Shown in pieces: positions 20,717-46,713 of a DNA stretch of 64,000 nucleotides (positions are counted from its first letter, which is position 1; the number at the start of each line of letters is the position of its first letter). The notes beneath the pieces are model-generated. The model worked only from the letters and a program-made list of their open reading frames with translations. It did no database searches and was not told the origin of the DNA. This DNA is from Lophium mytilinum (Eukaryota), in contig MU004182.1 in assembly GCA_010093605.1 (NCBI GenBank), forward strand, positions 507,502-571,501. Direction: 5' to 3'. A program made the translations under genes and the position numbers.

Positions 20717-23231
20717 ATGGCCGGCATGCTCGGCGATCACGAAGATCGAGGGCCCGTGAGCCCTGGCACTATTGCTTCTGGGACCGCAGACCAGATTGAG
20801 CACGCTATTGACGACGGCGCTGCCGGCGAACCACTCGTTCAGGACCCTCAAGAACTTTTCCAAGGGCCAAATGTGTCCGCACCTCGTACGCCGGTCAATA
20901 AACCGGTCCCTAAGCCTTCACCCCTTGGTAGCCACCCTGTCATATCATCAGATGAAGAGACGGCCCCAGCGCCTCCAGATTTTACGATGCGTGGTATTCA
21001 TATACCAACCCGCACCAGGTGCATATTCCTCACCCTCCCTTCATTCTAATCTACTAATACATCAATCCGACTACAGCAGCAAAACAAAGATAAAGCAGCG
21101 CCGCGTGCGATCTTCCAGTCGAGAGCCCAGAATGTCCAACTCCGTCCCCACTACCCCAGAGTCACGTGAGCGAAGCTCAACGGAATCCATCATGTCTTAT
21201 GCAACCTCAGCTTCTTCGATAATGCTACCGCCACTTCAGACGAGAGGCCCGCCGGACGACGTTGACCGACTCACGCCTCTATACGAGGATGACCCCCAAT
21301 CATTCGACCTACTGGAGGAGCCAAGTGACGACGGTGCAAAAGCTTTCTCAATGGAAACAAGGTCCGAGCAGATGTTCTCGCGAGCACATCTACAGGCTAT
21401 CTTCAAAGACACTTCTCTGCTACTCAATTTCACAAACTTCCTCAGCACCAGCCGGCCTGCTTCTCTCCCAATTCTCATCTACTATTTGGATGCTCTCAAA
21501 GCAACGCGCGCAATCAATTACGCCAATGCTATAGCGGAAGCTCTCGAACCACTGGACGGTCTAGATTTCACCAAACATCCAGCTAGGCCAACCGTCAACT
21601 CGGTACTAGAAGAAAAAGCCAAGGCAGCCTTTGATGTCCTAGTCCGCGAGGATCTCCCTTGTTTCATAGCCCACACCTGGATTCAGACAGTCAGTGTGAG
21701 CATCCGGAAGCGAATCACAGGAAACTTGCCTCCAGCGTTACGAGAGGCATCAGAAGGACTGGCGGAGGTTTTCTGCCTCTCAGATCCGTCAAGACCAGAT
21801 AATCCTATAGTGTTCGCGTCAGAAGGTAATCTCTTCTTGCTACCTGTACGGCCGAACGTCAGCTAAACCGACGCGGCAGAATTTCATCGAACTACGCAAT
21901 ATGGAGTCAGTTACGCAATTGGCCGAAATTGTCGATTCCTTCAAGGTCCGAAGACGAACCGCTCTAGCGCTACGCGCATACGTAAAGCGATTGAAGCTGG
22001 AAAGGAAGTCAACGAAGTGTTCCTCAACTAGTAGGTTGCTGTACCAGATCCCACTAGGCTTTGCTAACCTCCGCAGCCGTCGGGATGGCTCCCCATTCAT
22101 GAATCTTCTGATGTGTGCCCCGCTCTTTGATAGTCGCGGGAAACTTCGCTACTTCATCGGGGCGCAAGTTGACGTGAGCGGTCTTGTCAAAGACTGCACT
22201 GATCTGGAAGCGCTACAGCGCATAGTCGACAAAGAAAATAACAGTGCAGACTCAGACATGCCCGAAGTAGCAAAAGACGAGTTCCAAGAACTCAGCGAAA
22301 TGTTCAATGTCGCCGAACTAGACACGGTGCGAAAGCACGGTGGAAGGATGCACCGAGAACACGTCGACGACGACGACCAGAGCTCAATCGCCCATCGCCC
22401 GCGGCTCCTGCTCCGAGACTCGGGCGGGATGGAGTCCACACCAGTGAGAATGCCGTCTTCGAAATCAGACGGACGATTATCTGGAGTGTATAAAAACGTA
22501 TGTCATCCTCTCACGTTCATATTAAAGCTAGAATTTACTAACCTCACAACTCACAGTACCTACTCATCCGCCCCGCCCCTTCGCTTCGCATTCTCTTCAC
22601 TTCTCCATCTCTCCGCGTCCCAGGCATTTTGCAATCACCCTTCCTCTCTCGCATCGGCGGCTCTCCGCGCGTCCGCGAATCTCTCGCTGTTGCACTCGCA
22701 GACGGTTCCCGCGGCGTCACTGCCAAGATCCGATGGCTGACGACTCCCACCACCAACTCATCCGAGACCTCCGACGAAGGCCGCAGCAGATGGATTCACT
22801 GCACGCCACTCCTCGGCGCCGGCGGTCGCGTGGGCGTATGGATGGTCGTGCTCGTCGACGACGAGAGCGAAAACGGGCGCGTGCGGAAATTCCGCGAGGC
22901 GCCGCCTGTAGCGAAAGAGATCAGGAGGCTGGGCGGTAGGAACGATTTCGAGAGCACCATGCCCAACGTTGATGGCTACAGCGATGAGTTGTTCGGCGAA
23001 GTCGCGAGTGTGGAAAGGGATGCACGGAGGAATGGGAGGGTCATCCCGGCTTCGCCTATCACGCCGACGAGGAACGGGTTTGCAGCGCAGATGCCGTTTG
23101 ATGGGGTTATGCGGCCGGGGAGCTCGAGGAGTGTGCAGCGCGCGGTGAGTCCCGGGTATGGGTCTGGGTGGGAGATGCGGACGAATATGGGAAGTGCCGA
23201 GGGTAGTATTGCGTCGTTTGCATTGACTTGA
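20717..23231 (+). CDS. RGS-LOV-type blue-light photoreceptor (RGS-like N domain + LOV + C-terminal domain)
   Basis: EGLAEVFCLSDPSRPDNPIVFASE | EFHRTTQYGVSYAIGRNCRFLQGPKT (GRNCRFLQG at 21921-21947, in a short exon absent from the ORF track) | RRDGSPFMNLLMCAPLFDSRGKLRYFIGAQVDVS. Upstream helical region FTNFL...YYLDALKA...AINYANAIAE and downstream WIHCTPLLG...GVWMVV block. The start codon is uncertain. Confidence 0.88.
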
Positions 23232-23568
23232 GAGAGGAGGGAAATATAAGAAACGCGTTAGGCAACATATTGGATGACGCGGATTGGGATGGTACGATTG
23301 GGAGGAGGCACTCTGCTGGCGGCTATATACCCACGGCTGGGAGGGCGTACATTTGGTTTTTTGAGCATCTGAAACATCATCTATTGCTTGTTTGGGTCTA
23401 TATAAATCTAGAGAGCTATTTGAATATCATACCTTTGTACACATATTCACTCGCTTCAGAGCTCTCAACTAGCATCTCCGCCCCCACCCTGCTGCCTAGC
23501 TCCTCTACCCCTCACCTACCTCGAAGTCCCACACCTAACAAACTGTATTATTTCCCAACGAGCGGTAA

Positions 23569-23644
23569 TCCGGTGTGGTTTAGTTGGTTATAATTCGAGG
23601 TACCTTTCATCCCCGAGACCCTGGTTCGATCCCAGGCGCCGGAC
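23569..23644 (+). tRNA. tRNA-like gene copy 1 (Glu/Asp-type body, 10-nt anticodon loop containing CT-TTC-AT)
   Basis: Acceptor stem TCCGGTG/CGCCGGA, A box TGGTTTAGTTGG, T arm CCTGG-TTCGATC-CCAGG, 4-nt variable loop AGAC. Anticodon stem CGAGG/CCCCG (1 mismatch) encloses TACCTTTCAT. T5 terminator at 23683-23687. Confidence 0.7.
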
Positions 23645-23831
23645 GCTTGACGTATACCTTTGCTGTTTGGTGTCCCCGTTTCTTTTTGAACGGTACCTAG
23701 AACTAGAAGGGTAAGCCCCACAGAGTTCTCTTCGTGACGTGTCCTAGGCCGCTTGGACGGAAAGTATTGGCTGGACGCTACGTAGGCAGCCTTGTACGCT
23801 TTTATTTTGCGGGTGGTGAATACCTTTCCAA

Positions 23832-23907
23832 TCCGGTGTGGTTTAGTTGGTTATAATTCTAGGCTTTTTGCTACCTCGAGACCCTGGTTCGATCCCAGGC
23901 GCCGGAC
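23832..23907 (+). tRNA. tRNA-like gene copy 2 (non-canonical 10-nt anticodon loop; possibly pseudo)
   Basis: Acceptor, D and T arms are identical to copy 1. Anticodon arm is CTAGG-CTTTTTGCTA-CCTCG, which contains an internal T5 run. Confidence 0.65.
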
Positions 23908-24140
23908 GCATTGCGTGTACCTTTGCTGTTCCGTGTCGTCTACAGCCCCTATTTCTTTTGACCTACATAGGTAATAGGTAGAGGATAGGGTGGGGCAATT
24001 CCACCTGACTTGGCTGTGGGGTGGGCCGCCCCACACTGTTCCCCATTCGTGTCACGTTCAGCCCCAAACAAGATACCCCCAAAGCTAAGCCTACATAGCC
24101 ATGTACGTTTTTAATTTTCAGGGATAGCGAATTCTTTTCA

Positions 24141-24292
24141 TCCGGTGTGGTTTAGTTGGTTATAATTCGGTAGGTGGACTTTCCTGCCTCCGCGAGAGTT
24201 TGATGAGTACGAAAAGTGCGAAAAGAAGCTGATGATGTGGGCGGTAGGGTGCCTTCCTGCTCGAGACCCTGGTTCGATCCCAGGCGCCGGAC
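24141..24292 (+). tRNA. tRNA-like gene copy 3 with ~78-nt insert in the anticodon arm
   Basis: The 5' half (24141-24168) and 3' half (24262-24291) are identical to copies 1 and 2. The insert 24170-24247 reads GTAGGT...GCTGAT...TAG. T5 terminator at 24307-24311. Confidence 0.65.
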
Positions 24293-24806
24293 TTTGCGGG
24301 CGATGATTTTTGTGTTTTTGCGAGTCGGGGACAGGTTCGATCGTTTTTGGAAACGGCGATGGTGATGATGATCTTTTGGGCGAGCGGGTGGAATTGAGGT
24401 GGTTGGTTTAGTTGGGCGTGATGGGGTTAATGAGATAAGGAATTTAATCAGAGAATTTGGCGTGAACGCTGATAATGGTGGGAGCCTTTCACTTTCAGAG
24501 ATGGTCTTCGTTTGCTTCTAGCGGCTGGACAATGTCGTATGAGCACGACGTCTGTTTCGTTGTAGGATGGATGGTGAGGCGTGATGGTTGATGAAGCTTG
24601 AGAGCGACTGTCGGGTTCAGATTGATGATATCGAGCGAGTCTACATCATGAAGGATGAAACATCATCTGAGTTAGTGAACAAGATTGAGGAAAGAAGAGT
24701 CGGAACTAGTTGAGTGCAAGAGTTTTACTCAATTGCCATGTGACATAGCCGAAAGGGGCTAGGCATTTTCTATGCTATCGTCCCTCCATCTGTCTCCTTT
24801 CTTCAT

Positions 24807-25729
24807 CTACGACGGAGGCGGCACCCCAATCGTCATCCCACCATCTACCGACAGGATCTGCCCCGTCATCCACTGCGACCCGGGCAAGCACAGAAACACA
24901 GCTGCCTCGGCGATGTCCTCCGCCGTCCCCAATCGTGGCCATGGCGTGGCCTTCTTCATCGTCTCGTGGATCGCGTTATTTTCGAAATTCTGCCTCGCCA
25001 TTCCAGTCGCAACTACACCTGGCGACACGCAATTGACATTAATATAGTCCTTAGCATGATCAAGAGCGCCAGCACGCGTCATGTGATTGATTGACGCTTT
25101 GGTTGCGGAATATGCGACTTCCCCAGGGAATCCAAAGTTCCCAGCACAAGACGAGATGTTCACAATTCGACCTCTGCTACCCCATTTTAGGTCTACGTCT
25201 TGCTTCAGAAACTGCTGAATAGCTTGACGGCACATTCGAGCGGTTCCCAGGGTGTTCACTGCGGTCATTTTAGACCACAGGTCATCGTCTTCTTCAGCGA
25301 AGGTACGGAAGGGCGCCCAGTAGCCGGCGCAGTTGATGACGATGTCGAGTCGTCCGAAGGTCTGAATATCGTGAGTAGTTGCTTTTCGCGAAATGCTAAG
25401 ATTTTCTTACCGAAATCGTCTTCTCAAACCCGTCTTTAACTTGCTCTGCGTTTGAAATGTCTACCTGGCAGAAAATCGCAGCGCCGCCATTTTTCACGAT
25501 GAGATCTGCTGTTGGCACATCTTTGTCTGCCTCGTAACCGTTGGGATTTGCACCTTGCTTCAGGTCACAACAGACAATCTTAGCTCCGTGTTTTGCCAGT
25601 CCAAGGGAAATGGCGCGCCCCATTCCTGCAAATGGGTTAGTATTGCTTTTATTGGCTTGGTGGGGAAGCTGGACCAGATGAGCCCCCCGTCACCAAGGCT
25701 ACCTTATTTTCCAACGCTTTTGGGTCCAT
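24807..25729 (-). CDS. Short-chain dehydrogenase/reductase (FabG/glucose 1-dehydrogenase-like)
   Basis: KVALVTGGSSGMG NAD(P)-binding motif, IVNCAG, RIVNISS, catalytic YSATK, VNCVSPG, WMTGQILSVDGG. Two introns. Confidence 0.92.
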
Positions 25730-41782: not shown

Positions 41783-44700
41783 ATGGACGACAAATCCCCG
41801 ACACGCAAACGCATCGCTCGAAGGAATGGCCAGCTGAATGCGGGCGGAAGTGGAACCGGGACTAGCAATGATGAGAAAAGCAAAAATATGGACGGCCAGA
41901 GCGACAGCGGCGACGACACATTTGAGAGAGCCGTGAAGACGCCGCTCGATCCCAAACCACCCCGCACCGCCGGAAGAAATCACGTTGTTTCGGAGAGGAC
42001 GAGGGCGAGCAGGATTGAAGCTCAGAGACCGCAGTCGCAGCCTTTGAGGACAGTTTCGGTACGTTCAAGCCCGTCGTAATCGACGTACCTGAAGTCTGAC
42101 ATATAAATCGCGAACAGCCAGTTTCTACAAGACCCTTTGGCTCAGCTGCTGGGACTTCCAGACCTTTCTACCCCTCCGGTTATACTACTCCCATTCCTGT
42201 ACCACACAACGAGTTCCACGTACCCAGTTACATGAAACCCACGGAAGCTCATAAGAGGAAGGCCAAGCCACGAGTACCAAAACCATCGACACTTCCTCCT
42301 ATAATCACCTCGAATAATGTCGAAGGACACCCTTCTCAAAGAACACGCGAAGATACGCAGAATCCAGTAACACAGCTCCAGAAAACTCTCGCGCAAGGTG
42401 GTAAAGACCCCAAAAATGTTCCACCTGTGCGCCCAAACACTTCGCCAGGCAAACTCAATATAACCAATGGTAAAGAGGTAGTCAAGGATGAAGAACAGAC
42501 GGAGCCTCAAACGTCCCTATGGGGGCACACTAGAAACTCAGACTCATTCCCGGTGTGGAGCAACGGCCATTCGCCACGATCATCGTACCATGCGCCTGAA
42601 GACTTTGTAAAACCCTTGCGACCAGCTTTGTGGGCGCATCCGGAAGCCTCAGCATCCAAGCAACCAATACACCAGGATGGAAAACTCGAGTCTCCCAGGG
42701 TTTATGTATATCCAAGCAGTCAATCAGATGTACAACAGCGGCCTTCCTCGGTTGGTATCGATAAACATGACCCTCCACCACCTTCTTTTGAAAGACCGGG
42801 TCCGCTTAATGTCAACGGTTTCGAGCAACAGGGTCGGATTTCTACCCTAACACCACCAAGACCAACCAAAGAAAATGGCATCGGACCGTTGCCGGGTTCG
42901 AATACTTCTACGAATATCGAGGAATCGGAGGAGCTTCAGAGCGAAGAGGAGGACGATGAGTTGATGAACAGGGTGAAAAGGATCAAAGCACGGCACCAAG
43001 AGATGCAACGGATATTTGATCAACTTGGTAATCACCCTCCAGTTGAAGATCATAGAGAAATACCCAGCATAGAGGAGAATAGTGTAGGCGAGGCATCCCC
43101 GAGCATTCAAGCTGAAAGTCCCAGAAAGACACCTAGTCTAGAGAGAAATAGTGTAAGCCAAGCAACGCCGAGCAGCAGCAGTAGTAGTTCTTTCGTTACG
43201 AATCCAGAAGACTCCCCTAATGTACCGCGGTCGATGAAAGAGAAAGAGATTCAAGATGAAATATATGTGGACCAGGGGGCGACATACTCAGTGACAAAAA
43301 CATTTGCGGCATCTCCTGGTCGCAGCCACAGCGAAGAAGATGATCCTGGTACTCATCCAGCTCGTCAATCAAGACCTCAATCGACCGACACTGTTCTTTA
43401 CATGCCACCTTCGCCCCAACAGCCGCAGCCATTTACTACGAATAACGAGTCCACCGATCATTACGTAGCCCCAATCGATTTATTAGCACCGGCGTTGACT
43501 GGACAAAGCCGACATCGTCGTGGAGGCAGGCCTCCGCAGCATATCAATAGGCGTGCACTACGACCATTAACGATCTCTATTCCAAGGGCACCATCTGAGC
43601 CATCATCCCCGCCTATATGGGACATAATAGACCCATCCCCACTTTTATCACCATCTTCATCTAGCCCTTCAAGTCCGCGCAGCTCCGATAGGCGTTATCC
43701 ATCATTTGGGTCCGGGCTCTGGTGGCTCGAACCTCCAATTGCCATCTCACCAACCATATACGCCCTTCGCGGCCTTCACCGCCACCGTCACCCTTCCCTT
43801 CCATCGACTCCAACAACATCAAGTTCCACGTTTCCAAGTCTATCGGAGGGACCGTCGCCAGAAGCATCGCCCTCGCCGCCAAAGTCAACTTCCGAGTTAG
43901 AATCGTCCCTAGATTCGTCTGCCATACCCCCTCCACTTCATATCCATTCTCATCATGAGCCATCCAGAGTGGGTCTGACTGGCGCGTGCACACATTGCTC
44001 TCAGCATTGCCCCCGTCCCGAGGATCCTCCCGAATATCTTGTGCCCAATGCGCACACGCATATGAAGATCTTCATCCTCAACCTTGCGTTCATTCGAGCT
44101 TTGGCTATCATGGAAAGCGATCCGATCAAAGTGCTTAGTCTGATGATATACAAAGCGCTGCCTATCGCACAAGGCATTGAGGATCCCATAGCCGAGGCGA
44201 GATGCTGGTATTGGATTGGAAAGGCGGAAGCTACTAGGGGTGAATGGGGCGAGAGCTTGAGAGCATTGAAGAAGGCAATGGAGTTGGGGCTTGCAGGAAA
44301 AGAGCGATACACGGAGGGCCGAGAGATTCAGAACCTGCTGGATATAGTGACGAGATGGTACAAGGCGGCAAACGCGGCAGCCGATGGTGAAGAGGAGGCC
44401 GATGATCCATTGCTTGGGTTTTCAGGCGCGGCTAAGACTGAAATACTTCGGAGTGAAGGGGTGCCGGGTTTATTGCCTCCGGTCGGAGCAATCGGATATC
44501 TTCGAACGAACATCGAGAACTCTAGAGCGAAGAAGGAAGATATCAAACGAAAAACACATGAGATGGACGAAACGCGGCGGAATGAGGTCAAGGATTACTT
44601 AATGGGCCTGGAGGATTCGCATGTCAATGGGTCTTACTCGCCTACGCCATCCCAGTCCTCTGCGTCAGGATCCTCCACCGTGGCACCAATATCATCTCCA

Positions 44701-46713
44701 GAACTTGTACAAGTATCCCCAGACCAGCCAACATATGGAGGAGCGGTTGCTATAATAGATTGGAATAAGTCGAGGCAGTCCAGCATTGGGTCGGACGCTA
44801 CGACGATCGCGAACGGGCAGGCCTCAGGGCAGTCCAGTAACGAATCAGCTGTAACAGGTACGACTTTGGTGAATTCAGGGAGCTCCGTTGGGGAATCTAA
44901 GAAAGCAAACAACAACGTCCAAAACTCTTTGCCGAGCTTGATGAAAGCCAGCATCGAACCGGAAATCTCACGAGCTCGTCCTAGATATACGAGAGTAAGG
45001 AAATGGCGTTCTTCATCTTCGTCTGGTAGTAGCGAGGGGAGAGAGCGGCGTAAGCTCGAGCACGAGCACGGTCGTAAGGAACCGCCCTCAATCGAATGGG
45101 AGCACGCATCACTCCATCCCGGAAGTGGGAAATCAGGCCTTGTAAGTGTACCGAATGGGCAGCACGAACCAAATTGGGAGACGGTCACCGAGGCTCAGAA
45201 AGAGGACACTATTAGCGAAGAGGGCGAAGGAAGTGACACAGGAAGTATCAACTCCTCTAAGACGGTCACAGCATCCGAAAAGACATCGCCTACGACGGCG
45301 CGAATCAATAAGCTTTTCATGGGCAGTGATACAGAAAGTATTGCAGGGTCCGGGGCATCTCCCTCAGATGAGACCTCCCAGCAAGTAGAACCCACAACCG
45401 GCTTAGTACCATCATTTTCAGAGCCTGGCCGAATTGCAAGTTGGCAGAAAGGTGTTTATCGCAAGCCTAAACCACTTGACATCTCGATATCTCAGTCAAC
45501 GGAGTCACCCTTGGCTGATTATCCTATTGTGGGTCGAACCCAAACTCCGAATACCCTATTTCCTCCATTCGATCATAGTTATTCCCCTCCCAGAACTGCG
45601 AATGGAACACCCCACACCCCTCAAGCACTCACGCCATCCCAGACAATGCCACCAGGGTGGACTGGCTCTGTGCCTCAAGGACAGGCGATCTTGTTAGGGC
45701 AAGTTGGTAGTCAACTTCTAGTGGCCTCTCGTGTCCATCCACAAAATGGCTGGCTTTCCAGACCGCCTCGTCGCCCACTCCGGCCTAACTCATCGTCGCA
45801 GCCACCAAATTCAGCGCCCCTACCAGAGTCCGATTCTCACTCAACTATGCTGCAAGGACAGGAGGATTTGACTCGGCGTCAAACATTGCCTTCTAGTCTC
45901 GAGTCTCAAGACGTTACACCTTCGGAAGTTCCGACTTCGCCTTCTAGCGTCTCGACCACCTTCAACATCAGCGACCTTGATGACCTCTCGCCACCGCTCC
46001 GGAGAACGTCTTATCAGCTTCAGCGCGAGGGGGAAGAGCGGCAGCAACTGAGAGAGTTACTATCATCTCCCCCCGCATCGGATATCTCAACGAACGCCTC
46101 CGGATCAGAAGCCGGCTCCCTTTCTGATACCGACGAATCAGACCAGAATATCCAAGAACTTATATATCCAGGAGCCGGCGCTGGAAGGGCGAGAAGAACA
46201 AGCCTCGCACCTATCGTGACAACACCACGACCCAAAGGCCGCCACGCCATCGTCAGCCTCGAGTCTTCACCTAACAGCCCGATCATGGGCATCGTCGACC
46301 TCGAACCCGAGCTGCATTGGGAACCGCCAGATGAAACGCGGGCGAGTCCTCTAGCCCACTTGAACAGGTCAGGCGACCGCGACCGGGACCGCAATCGCAA
46401 CCGCAGTAGACCTGGGCCCGAGCCCATTCGCCTTACCTACAGACAGTTGGACCGGATAGCCACGATCTACTATGAGCAAAATGAACGAATGGTGATGGAG
46501 GATTTGAATCATCTAGTGAGATCCGGTCGTGATTTGGCTAAGTACCAATATGACGAGAACAAGGTGAGAGACCGGGGGTATCTGACCGATTGGGATTGGA
46601 ATGAACTACAGTTGGCTGGGCCTGAGGAACTTTACCTGATGGTCAAGGCGTATGGTGATATTCGGCATGGGCTTGAGACTCGATTGCGCCAATTGGAGGA
46701 CGCGTCTCCTTGA
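41783..46713 (+). CDS. Large (~1600 aa) Ser/Pro-rich disordered protein with a central TPR-like helical segment
   Basis: 1493-codon ORF plus an upstream exon joined by intron 42060-42117 (GTACGT..CTGAC..CAG). Helical block IAEARCWYWIGKAEATRGEWGESLRALKKAMELG. Confidence 0.75.

Follow-up and report, generated by a model that had tools for sequence, protein, structure and literature searches.

Can an intron of the kind removed by the spliceosome reside in a gene that has the shape of a tRNA? The question is raised by a 64-kb window (the whole 64,000-nucleotide stretch of fungal DNA that was analyzed), in which the third of three tandem tRNA-shaped genes is interrupted by an insert of 78 nt. Eukaryotic introns are taught as classes that each have their own machinery, with tRNA introns lying at 37/38 and being cut by an endonuclease and GT-AG introns belonging to Pol II transcripts; the known exceptions to this split are snRNA genes and some rDNA. 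No spliceosomal intron in a gene of the tRNA or tRNA-like kind was reported in the full-text literature that we searched or in two tRNA reviews. Were a tRNA-shaped gene to carry a GT-AG intron, the spliceosome would act on a wider range of RNAs.

Three tandem tRNA-shaped genes

The genes, their parts, and the elements around them are given by position in the window.

23569-23644 (+), tRNA-shaped gene copy 1, called by ARAGORN and aligned by Rfam tRNA at 39.3 bits; anticodon arm CGAGG/CCCCG with one mismatch and a 10-nt loop in the Rfam tRNA alignment
23683-23687, run of five T behind copy 1, from the sequence
23832-23907 (+), tRNA-shaped gene copy 2, called by ARAGORN and aligned by Rfam tRNA at 40.4 bits; anticodon arm CTAGG/CCTCG with one mismatch and a 10-nt loop in the Rfam tRNA alignment
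23956-23959, run of four T behind copy 2, from the sequence
24107-24118 (+), T/A-rich block about 23 to 34 nt upstream of copy 3, from the sequence; putative promoter element
24141-24292 (+), copy 3 as a whole, third of the tandem set, carrying the 78-nt insert
24141-24169 (+), first part of copy 3 (acceptor 5' strand, D arm, and positions 26 to 28), from the sequence
24248-24292 (+), second part of copy 3 (arm 3' side, variable loop, T arm, acceptor 3' strand, and discriminator C), from the sequence and alignment
24307-24311 and 24315-24319 (+), two runs of five T, 15 to 27 nt after copy 3; putative Pol III terminators by their likeness to such elements

In a three-way alignment, copy 3 equals copies 1 and 2 up to 24168. 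Two parts are letter-identical in all three copies: the 5' part, which is 28 nt long and reaches to ..AATTC, and the 3' part, which runs from CGAGAC through the discriminator C. Searches with a 20-nt 5' body and a 24-nt 3' body found each of them three times in the window with 0 mismatches, a result matched by 0 of 100 shuffles, and found no fourth copy within the 64 kb. The acceptor, D, and T parts are common to the three copies; the anticodon arms differ and are abnormal, and the flanks have diverged, with a mean column identity of 60% over the whole alignment. That the body has been kept identical while the arms differ among the paralogues points to selection.

Internal A and B boxes and a downstream T run, as in a type 2 Pol III gene, are present, and GGTTCGATCC in the T arm agrees with the B-box consensus. 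A T/A-rich block similar to that of copy 3 also lies about 25 to 35 nt before copies 1 and 2, a run of four or five T follows every copy at 15 to 55 nt, and the sequence of the 78-nt insert contains no run of four T. The copies have the layout of Pol III genes, and it is this layout that suggests Pol III as the transcribing polymerase.

Rfam tRNA aligns copies 1 and 2 across the full model at the scores given above (gathering score, 29), with a 10-nt loop and a single non-standard anticodon-stem pair in each. The cloverleaf of a decoding tRNA, with acceptor, D, and T arms, was found in copies 1 and 2 and in copy 3 once the insert was removed; a 5-bp anticodon stem, a 7-nt loop, and a stable anticodon call were not. 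With its intron option off, ARAGORN called copies 1 and 2 as Lys(ctt) and Gln(ttg); with the option on, it called Glu(ttc), with an "intron" of 3 nt, and Ser(gct), with one of 5 nt, and under neither setting did it find a consistent anticodon. Copy 3 with its insert received no call from Rfam tRNA or from ARAGORN without the intron option, and ARAGORN called it only if an intron was allowed or the insert was taken out. Minus 78 nt, it is reported as a 74-nt "tRNA-???" with an odd loop, and minus 76 or 74 nt, as Gly(gcc). Folded alone, the three arms are weak (-0.5, -2.4, and -3.4 kcal/mol). The initial annotation had described the arm of copy 3 without the insert as a fully paired stem, CGGGT/GCTCG, around an 8-nt loop. 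A fold of the whole molecule minus 78 nt has this 8-nt loop, on a 6-bp arm; the stem is fully paired only when two G-U pairs are counted. With an 8-nt loop and two G-U pairs, spliced copy 3 is not a normal tRNA.

Because the isotype calls shift and the arms are weak and odd, we term these genes tRNA-like; the body presumably resembles the Glu/Asp/Gly group of eukaryotic tRNAs. Since the arms differ between copies and are unfit for decoding, copy 3 probably gives rise to a tRNA-like RNA whose role lies outside translation. One such role, that of a decoy for anticodon-nuclease toxins (an idea taken from bioRxiv 10.1101/2024.10.25.620242), was considered and dropped as unsupported; among 38 ORF translations from the window (5 + 33), no chitinase or toxin-like domains were found. 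The locus raises the question of what non-decoding tRNA-like RNAs with frozen bodies and differing arms do in a fungus.

Abnormal anticodon arms, isotype calls that shift with the ARAGORN options, and Rfam scores of only 39 to 40 bits would also suit decaying tRNA pseudogenes, in which case the insert would be junk, its signals the work of chance, and the joined contig described below an artifact. We consider this very improbable. Despite diverged flanks, the three copies agree fully over the 28-nt 5' part and over the 3' part, the body has no listed difference in relatives whose flanks fail to align, and the junction, at a depth of 54.7, needs real 31-letter words.

The insert and the contig that skips it

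The insert and its signals are as follows.

24170-24247 (+), the 78-nt insert, a candidate spliceosome-type intron, from the sequence and from a contig of public run X1 that skips exactly this stretch
24170-24175 (+), donor GTAGGT, from the sequence; no listed difference in relatives
24228-24233 (+), branch-like GCTGAT, with its A at 24232, 15 nt before the 3' end
24245-24247 (+), acceptor TAG, from the sequence and the X1 joint
24168-24174 (+), direct repeat CGGTAGG, first copy, from the sequence
24242-24248 (+), direct repeat CGGTAGG, second copy, at a period of 74 nt, from the sequence

The insert is confined to copy 3; in the three-way alignment, copies 1 and 2 have no extra stretch. It follows tRNA position 28 (the C of ..AATTC is position 27 in the Rfam alignment), and the best reading of the sequence would place the intron between positions 28 and 29, within the anticodon stem's 5' strand. 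The letters given by the initial annotation were all found in place, including the start GTAGGT, GCTGAT at 24228-24233, the TAG end, the site after position 28, and CGGTAGG at both ends of the insert (24168-24174 and 24242-24248). The sequence between branch and acceptor contains no pyrimidine tract. Two box C/D-like motifs, UGAUGA (24201-24206) and CUGAUGA (in the 24229-24236 region), also occur within the insert; the latter overlaps the branch motif and has no listed change in relatives, and the former is broken by an insertion in them. A box C/D snoRNA was rejected: UGAUGA at 24201-24206 and CUGA at 24229-24232 are only 22 nt apart with no adjoining terminal stem, the insertion in relatives falls inside the C-like box, and no Rfam snoRNA matched in the insert.

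The insert had been described as like the mRNA introns of the window in size and signals, and this held. Candidate mRNA introns were defined as GT[AG]NGT...CTRAY...YAG stretches of 40 to 130 nt that connect two open frames, each 60 codons or longer, and whose read-through is closed. The window contains 20 such predicted introns at about 15 sites, with lengths of 45 to 129 nt and branch-to-end distances of 6 to 28 nt. Their donors are GTAAGT (8), GTATGT (4), GTGAGT (3), GTAGGT (2), GTGGGT (2), and GTACGT (1), and their branches are CTAAC (9), CTGAC (7), CTAAT (3), and CTGAT (1). At 78 nt, with GTAGGT, CTGAT, and a distance of 15, the insert falls within all of these ranges, CTGAT being the rarer branch form (1 of 20). 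The combination of a GT[AG]NGT start, CTRAY at 6 to 30 nt before the end, and a YAG end occurs in 2 of the 127,844 78-mers on both strands of the window. An introner-like element would have many near-identical copies across a genome; in the 64 kb, no second copy of the insert core was found (best other score, 14 versus 67 for itself).

Nine public sequencing runs were listed, none of them on record as RNA. One of these, X1 (organism A, study P1), contains 99% of the words that were sampled; its type label, "RNA?", is a guess, and DNA can be present in a run labeled in this way. A contig from X1 joins 24168 to 24247, skipping 78 nt, at a depth of 54.7 and with 28 nt on its shorter side. The joint fits three registers, of which the middle one (24169 to 24248) alone yields GT..AG; this is the junction that the initial annotation had put forward as a check on the intron, and it is present in a run whose type is a guess. 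Three features of a U2-type GT-AG intron were found here: an extended donor match, a CTRAY branch with a YAG end, and molecules, probably RNA, that lack exactly the 78 nt.

Beside the joined contig stands an unjoined one (24141-24276; depth, 56.3). Arithmetic on the depth bins gives the joined contig as 24141-24168 plus 24247-24276, or 58 nt. Three bins were computed as 39.9 + 13/32 x 56.3 + 13/32 x 54.7 = 85.0 (observed, 85), 17/32 x 39.9 + 56.3 + 15/32 x 54.7 = 103.1 (observed, 103.1), and 27/32 x 56.3 + 145 + 19/32 x 91.9 + 27/32 x 54.7 = 293.2 (observed, 293.1). The bins being reproduced, the joined and unjoined forms are therefore two paths between the same flanking words. Because a contig requires real 31-letter words over the junction, the assembly could not have made the joint from the unjoined form. 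Furthermore, the cut removes 78 nt and not 74, so slippage, recombination, and template switching, which favor the 7-nt repeat, do not fit. At 58 nt, the joined contig lies wholly inside gene-shared sequence and so is without flanks of its own. Removal of the splice type is supported by one contig in one run of guessed type.

Depth in X1 bears on whether the joined form is RNA or DNA. Contigs of shared words have depths of 80 (3' ends of copies 1 and 2), 187.5 (copies 2 and 3), and 145 (copy 3, both forms), from which local depths of about 37.5, 42.5, and 145 were derived for copies 1, 2, and 3; copy 3 is thus about 3.6 times deeper than the others. The two spacer contigs (41.4 and 39.9) equal copies 1 and 2, and a 413-nt contig downstream of copy 3 has a depth of 91.9. 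The mean depth of an 888-nt contig (22756-23643) ending in copy 1 is 429.9, which means a fall of more than 10-fold along it. In addition, the form-specific contigs (56.3 and 54.7) each exceed the upstream contig (39.9), which runs unbroken into the gene to 24170. X1 behaves like RNA in both respects, because DNA of even coverage gives neither the tenfold fall nor form contigs deeper than the contig upstream of them. The uneven depth within and between contigs favors the conclusion that X1 is RNA, short of proof. As mature 75-nt RNAs are mostly lost from ordinary libraries, the depth ratio says little about copies 1 and 2.

Were X1 DNA, the joined form would be a second gene copy, or an allele of copy 3, that lacks the 78 nt, arising through intron loss, intron gain, or a processed copy. 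The guessed type leaves room for this, the X1 contigs total 33 million letters (near the size of a fungal genome), the depth of about 40 is even across both spacers and copies 1 and 2, and the 91.9 of the downstream contig is about twice that of the spacers, as a duplicated flank would give. However, a mean of 429.9 in the 888-nt contig against about 37.5 at its copy 1 end is foreign to such a source, and form-specific contigs deeper than an upstream contig unbroken to 24170 are impossible for two alleles of one locus. Moreover, 0 of 11 X1 contigs lie only partly on the stretch, and the window has no fourth copy. We give the second copy or allele little credence and regard the joined form as quite probably spliced RNA. 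Should the joined form be DNA after all, presence in one form and absence in the other of a stretch with exact GT..AG ends would still mark a spliceosome-type intron.

Variation in relatives and a predicted hairpin

Three contigs from runs of two other studies retain the insert: one from X4 (organism C; 24150-24304) with 4 differences and two from X7 (an air metagenome), spanning 24152-24293 with 10 differences and 1 gap and 24152-24250 with 7 differences and 2 gaps. In X7, alignment of the flanks breaks off within a few letters of the gene, leaving loose ends before 24128 and others behind 24293, and these sequences therefore come from other lineages and not from the same strain. Only differences away from contig ends are listed (2 of 4, 8 of 10, and 5 of 7, in the order of the contigs above), and at the contig depths of 3 to 4, as at any depth below 5, single differences may be errors. 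The listed variable places comprise eight substitutions (24180, 24182, 24186, 24195, 24214, 24215, 24224, and 24225) and three insertions (behind 24204, 24205, and 24223). All 11 lie within 24180-24225, and five are common to two contigs.

No listed difference in the X4 and X7 contigs touches the gene body (including 24248-24292), the downstream arm, the donor, the branch, or the acceptor, and the branch motif is spared even though the adjoining 24224 and 24225 vary. The pattern that the initial annotation had expected of orthologues, with GT, branch, and AG kept around a variable interior, is accordingly present in these contigs. With 11 events, the chance of missing all 15 signal positions is 0.095, and the untouched splice signals are weakly consistent with an intron. 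The comparison of arms with relatives covers copy 3, and the lack of listed change in its arm fits a tRNA-like RNA whose arm may carry some specificity.

Another X7 contig, on 23829-23859, contains the 5' body of the family with 1 difference, followed by quite different sequence in place of the arm, and continues for 151 more letters with no fit to the window. It therefore seems that members of the family in other lineages have different, perhaps long, arms. From run X5, one piece corresponds to 23466-23564, upstream of copy 1; another, of 36 nt with 83% likeness and joined to 211 unrelated letters, was uninformative. A metagenome scan with the 20-nt 5' body gave 8 loci, all of which were discarded as chance matches in unrelated DNA without a tRNA-like continuation, and a scan of prokaryote genomes with the 28-nt 5' body gave 0 matches.

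The insert and the arm are also predicted to fold together.

24169-24261 (+), predicted long imperfect hairpin of insert and arm, from a fold of 24166-24262

This fold has an energy of -34.7 kcal/mol (z, -2.76), and 3 of 200 shuffles fold as well. In it, the first GGTAGG is predicted to pair with CCTGCT of the downstream arm, and CCTGCC of the insert with the second GGTAGG. In the predicted fold, nine of the 11 places that vary among relatives are unpaired, and at the other two the pair is kept (U-G to C-G and G-U to A-U). At least 9 of 11 falling in the 29 unpaired of 78 positions has a chance of 0.0033 in what is a post hoc test on a fold from one sequence, and each of the two changes at paired places affects one side of its pair, without compensation on the other. 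A conserved predicted hairpin accounts for the variable places at least as well as conserved splice signals do. This suggests that the hairpin may matter, either by bringing the splice sites together or through a role for the unspliced RNA.

Such a role is the core of another explanation, in which the insert is mainly a structured extension of the arm by internal duplication, the unspliced RNA is the working form, the signals are incidental, and removal is a side reaction on a Pol II transcript. The hairpin (z, -2.76) and the placement of the variable positions (P = 0.0033) speak for it, as do the 7-nt direct repeat, the likeness of the insert start to the arm (32 of 2,000 shuffles), and spacers at a depth of about 40, which would allow a long transcript to pass through. 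Yet at 54.7 joined versus 56.3 unjoined, the joined form is no rare by-product, and the three signals very rarely come together by chance (2 of 127,844). The structural case itself rests on a fold predicted from one sequence, a post hoc test, and changes that are one-sided rather than compensatory. We think an arm extension with incidental signals improbable.

Internal duplication had also been proposed as an alternative to splicing, from the repeat and from a resemblance between the insert start and the downstream arm. The resemblance is real and modest: the first ~20 nt of the insert align locally to the arm with a score of 17, which 32 of 2,000 shuffles reach (p, ~0.016). This lends weak support to an origin of the insert by internal duplication of the arm. 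Splicing takes 78 nt and the repeat period is 74 nt, so the arm from before the duplication is not restored, and duplication does not explain the junction. For the same reason, an IRE1-type cut at CGGTAGG was rejected, as it would remove 74 nt and not 78 and its sites would lie outside 7-nt loops. The IRE1 loop motif is CNG|NNGN, which CGGTAGG fits.

Possible substrate of the proposed splicing and comparison with known introns

The explanation that we moderately favor is that 24170-24247 is a real spliceosome-type intron in a conserved, non-decoding tRNA-like gene. As first annotated, a spliceosomal intron in a tRNA-like gene is partly supported, by the junction, the signals, and the relatives; what does not conform to a tRNA is the anticodon arm, which is not that of a decoder. 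If this explanation is correct, U1 would pair with GUAGGU, the branch would form at the A of CUGAU, and the exons would be joined after UAG. Before splicing, the RNA would be 152 nt long and have a long hairpin arm; afterward it would be a cloverleaf, compact at about 74 nt, whose arm has 5 to 6 bp and whose loop has 8 nt, and RNase P, RNase Z, and the CCA-adding enzyme could then handle it like a tRNA.

Pol III transcripts are generally poor substrates for the spliceosome. Since X1 also covers the spacers (~40) and the downstream contig (91.9), a long Pol II transcript may be the substrate, either running through the cluster or starting near copy 3. RNase P and RNase Z could release the tRNA-shaped part from such a transcript, as for mascRNA, a tRNA-like small RNA cut from the long Pol II transcript MALAT1 (PMC9777231). 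With a long Pol II substrate, the two would share release by these enzymes; unlike mascRNA, there are three tandem units here, each with an upstream T/A block and a downstream T run. The mascRNA is not known to contain an intron.

The closest parallel is the U6 snRNA gene, in which fission yeast, among other fungi, has mRNA-type introns (Tani and Ohshima 1989, 1991, cited through PMC5855946). Like these, copy 3 would have a GT-AG intron with mRNA-type signals in a small non-coding RNA gene of Pol III-type layout in a fungus. Unlike U6, it would encode a tRNA-shaped RNA without a link to the spliceosome, and here transcription by Pol III is putative. The position of U6 within the spliceosome's active site is the usual explanation of how it gained introns, through reverse splicing. 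Spliceosomal introns also occur in ascomycete U1, U2, and U5 snRNA genes and in rDNA (Takahashi 1993, 1996; Bhattacharya 2000, likewise cited through PMC5855946). These cases show that such introns have settled in ascomycete non-coding RNA genes, including ones not transcribed by Pol II, and none of those named there is of the tRNA type.

Canonical tRNA introns, located between N37 and N38, are cut by an endonuclease and joined by a ligase (PMC10275265), and reviews treat tRNA introns as a separate class (PMC10275265; PMC12530127). Like them, the insert is in the anticodon arm of a tRNA-shaped gene and is predicted to pair with that arm. Unlike them, copy 3 has its junction at 28/29, GT..AG ends, and no bulge-helix-bulge. 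A tRNA endonuclease (SEN) intron was rejected for its junction (28/29 and not 37/38) and the lack of a bulge-helix-bulge; in the predicted fold, both cut sites are base-paired, and inspection by eye shows no pairing of the 4 nt needed for the central helix. Introns can also be created through tandem duplication of a segment that holds AGGT (PMC3265369 and PMC4974935). The insert is like introns born in this way in having CGGTAGG at both ends, with the donor in the first copy and the acceptor in the second, and a start that resembles the arm; it is unlike them in that 78 nt are spliced against a period of 74 nt and in that the likeness is weak (p, ~0.016).

A more far-reaching reading, which we put forward tentatively and consider doubtful as a whole, is that this is the first spliceosomal intron in a Pol III-transcribed tRNA-type gene: conserved across species, hairpinned with the arm that it interrupts, probably born from duplication of that arm, and gating, by its removal, the maturation of a non-decoding tRNA-like RNA. 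If so, spliceosomal splicing would gate a Pol III small RNA other than the spliceosome's own parts. With Pol III as the polymerase, the gene would join U6 as a second natural system in which to ask if Pol II is needed for splicing. Whatever the polymerase, a GT-AG intron here would be a dated, small example of an intron arising inside a structured RNA.

The cluster lies between a gene without an assigned family on the + strand, which ends near 23231, and a short-chain dehydrogenase gene (24807-25689, - strand, Pfam). The upstream gene (20760-23231) contains three long open frames (20760-21866, 21811-22740, and 22542-23231), none with a Pfam family at an E value of 0.001 or 1e-5. By the drop in X1 depth from 429.9 to about 37.5, its transcript may end just before or at copy 1. 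Elsewhere in the window, an open frame at 42100-46710 (+), of 1,537 residues, has no Pfam family at an E value of 1e-5. The trailers of copies 1 and 2 are similar for about 30 nt past the gene. A motif, TACCTTT(C/G), is found in the arm of copy 1 (23601-23609), just upstream of copy 2 (23821-23829), and in the 3' trailers of copies 1 and 2 (23655-23665 and 23918-23928), both of which read TACCTTTGCTG; its recurrence may reflect a conserved trailer element or a trace of duplication.
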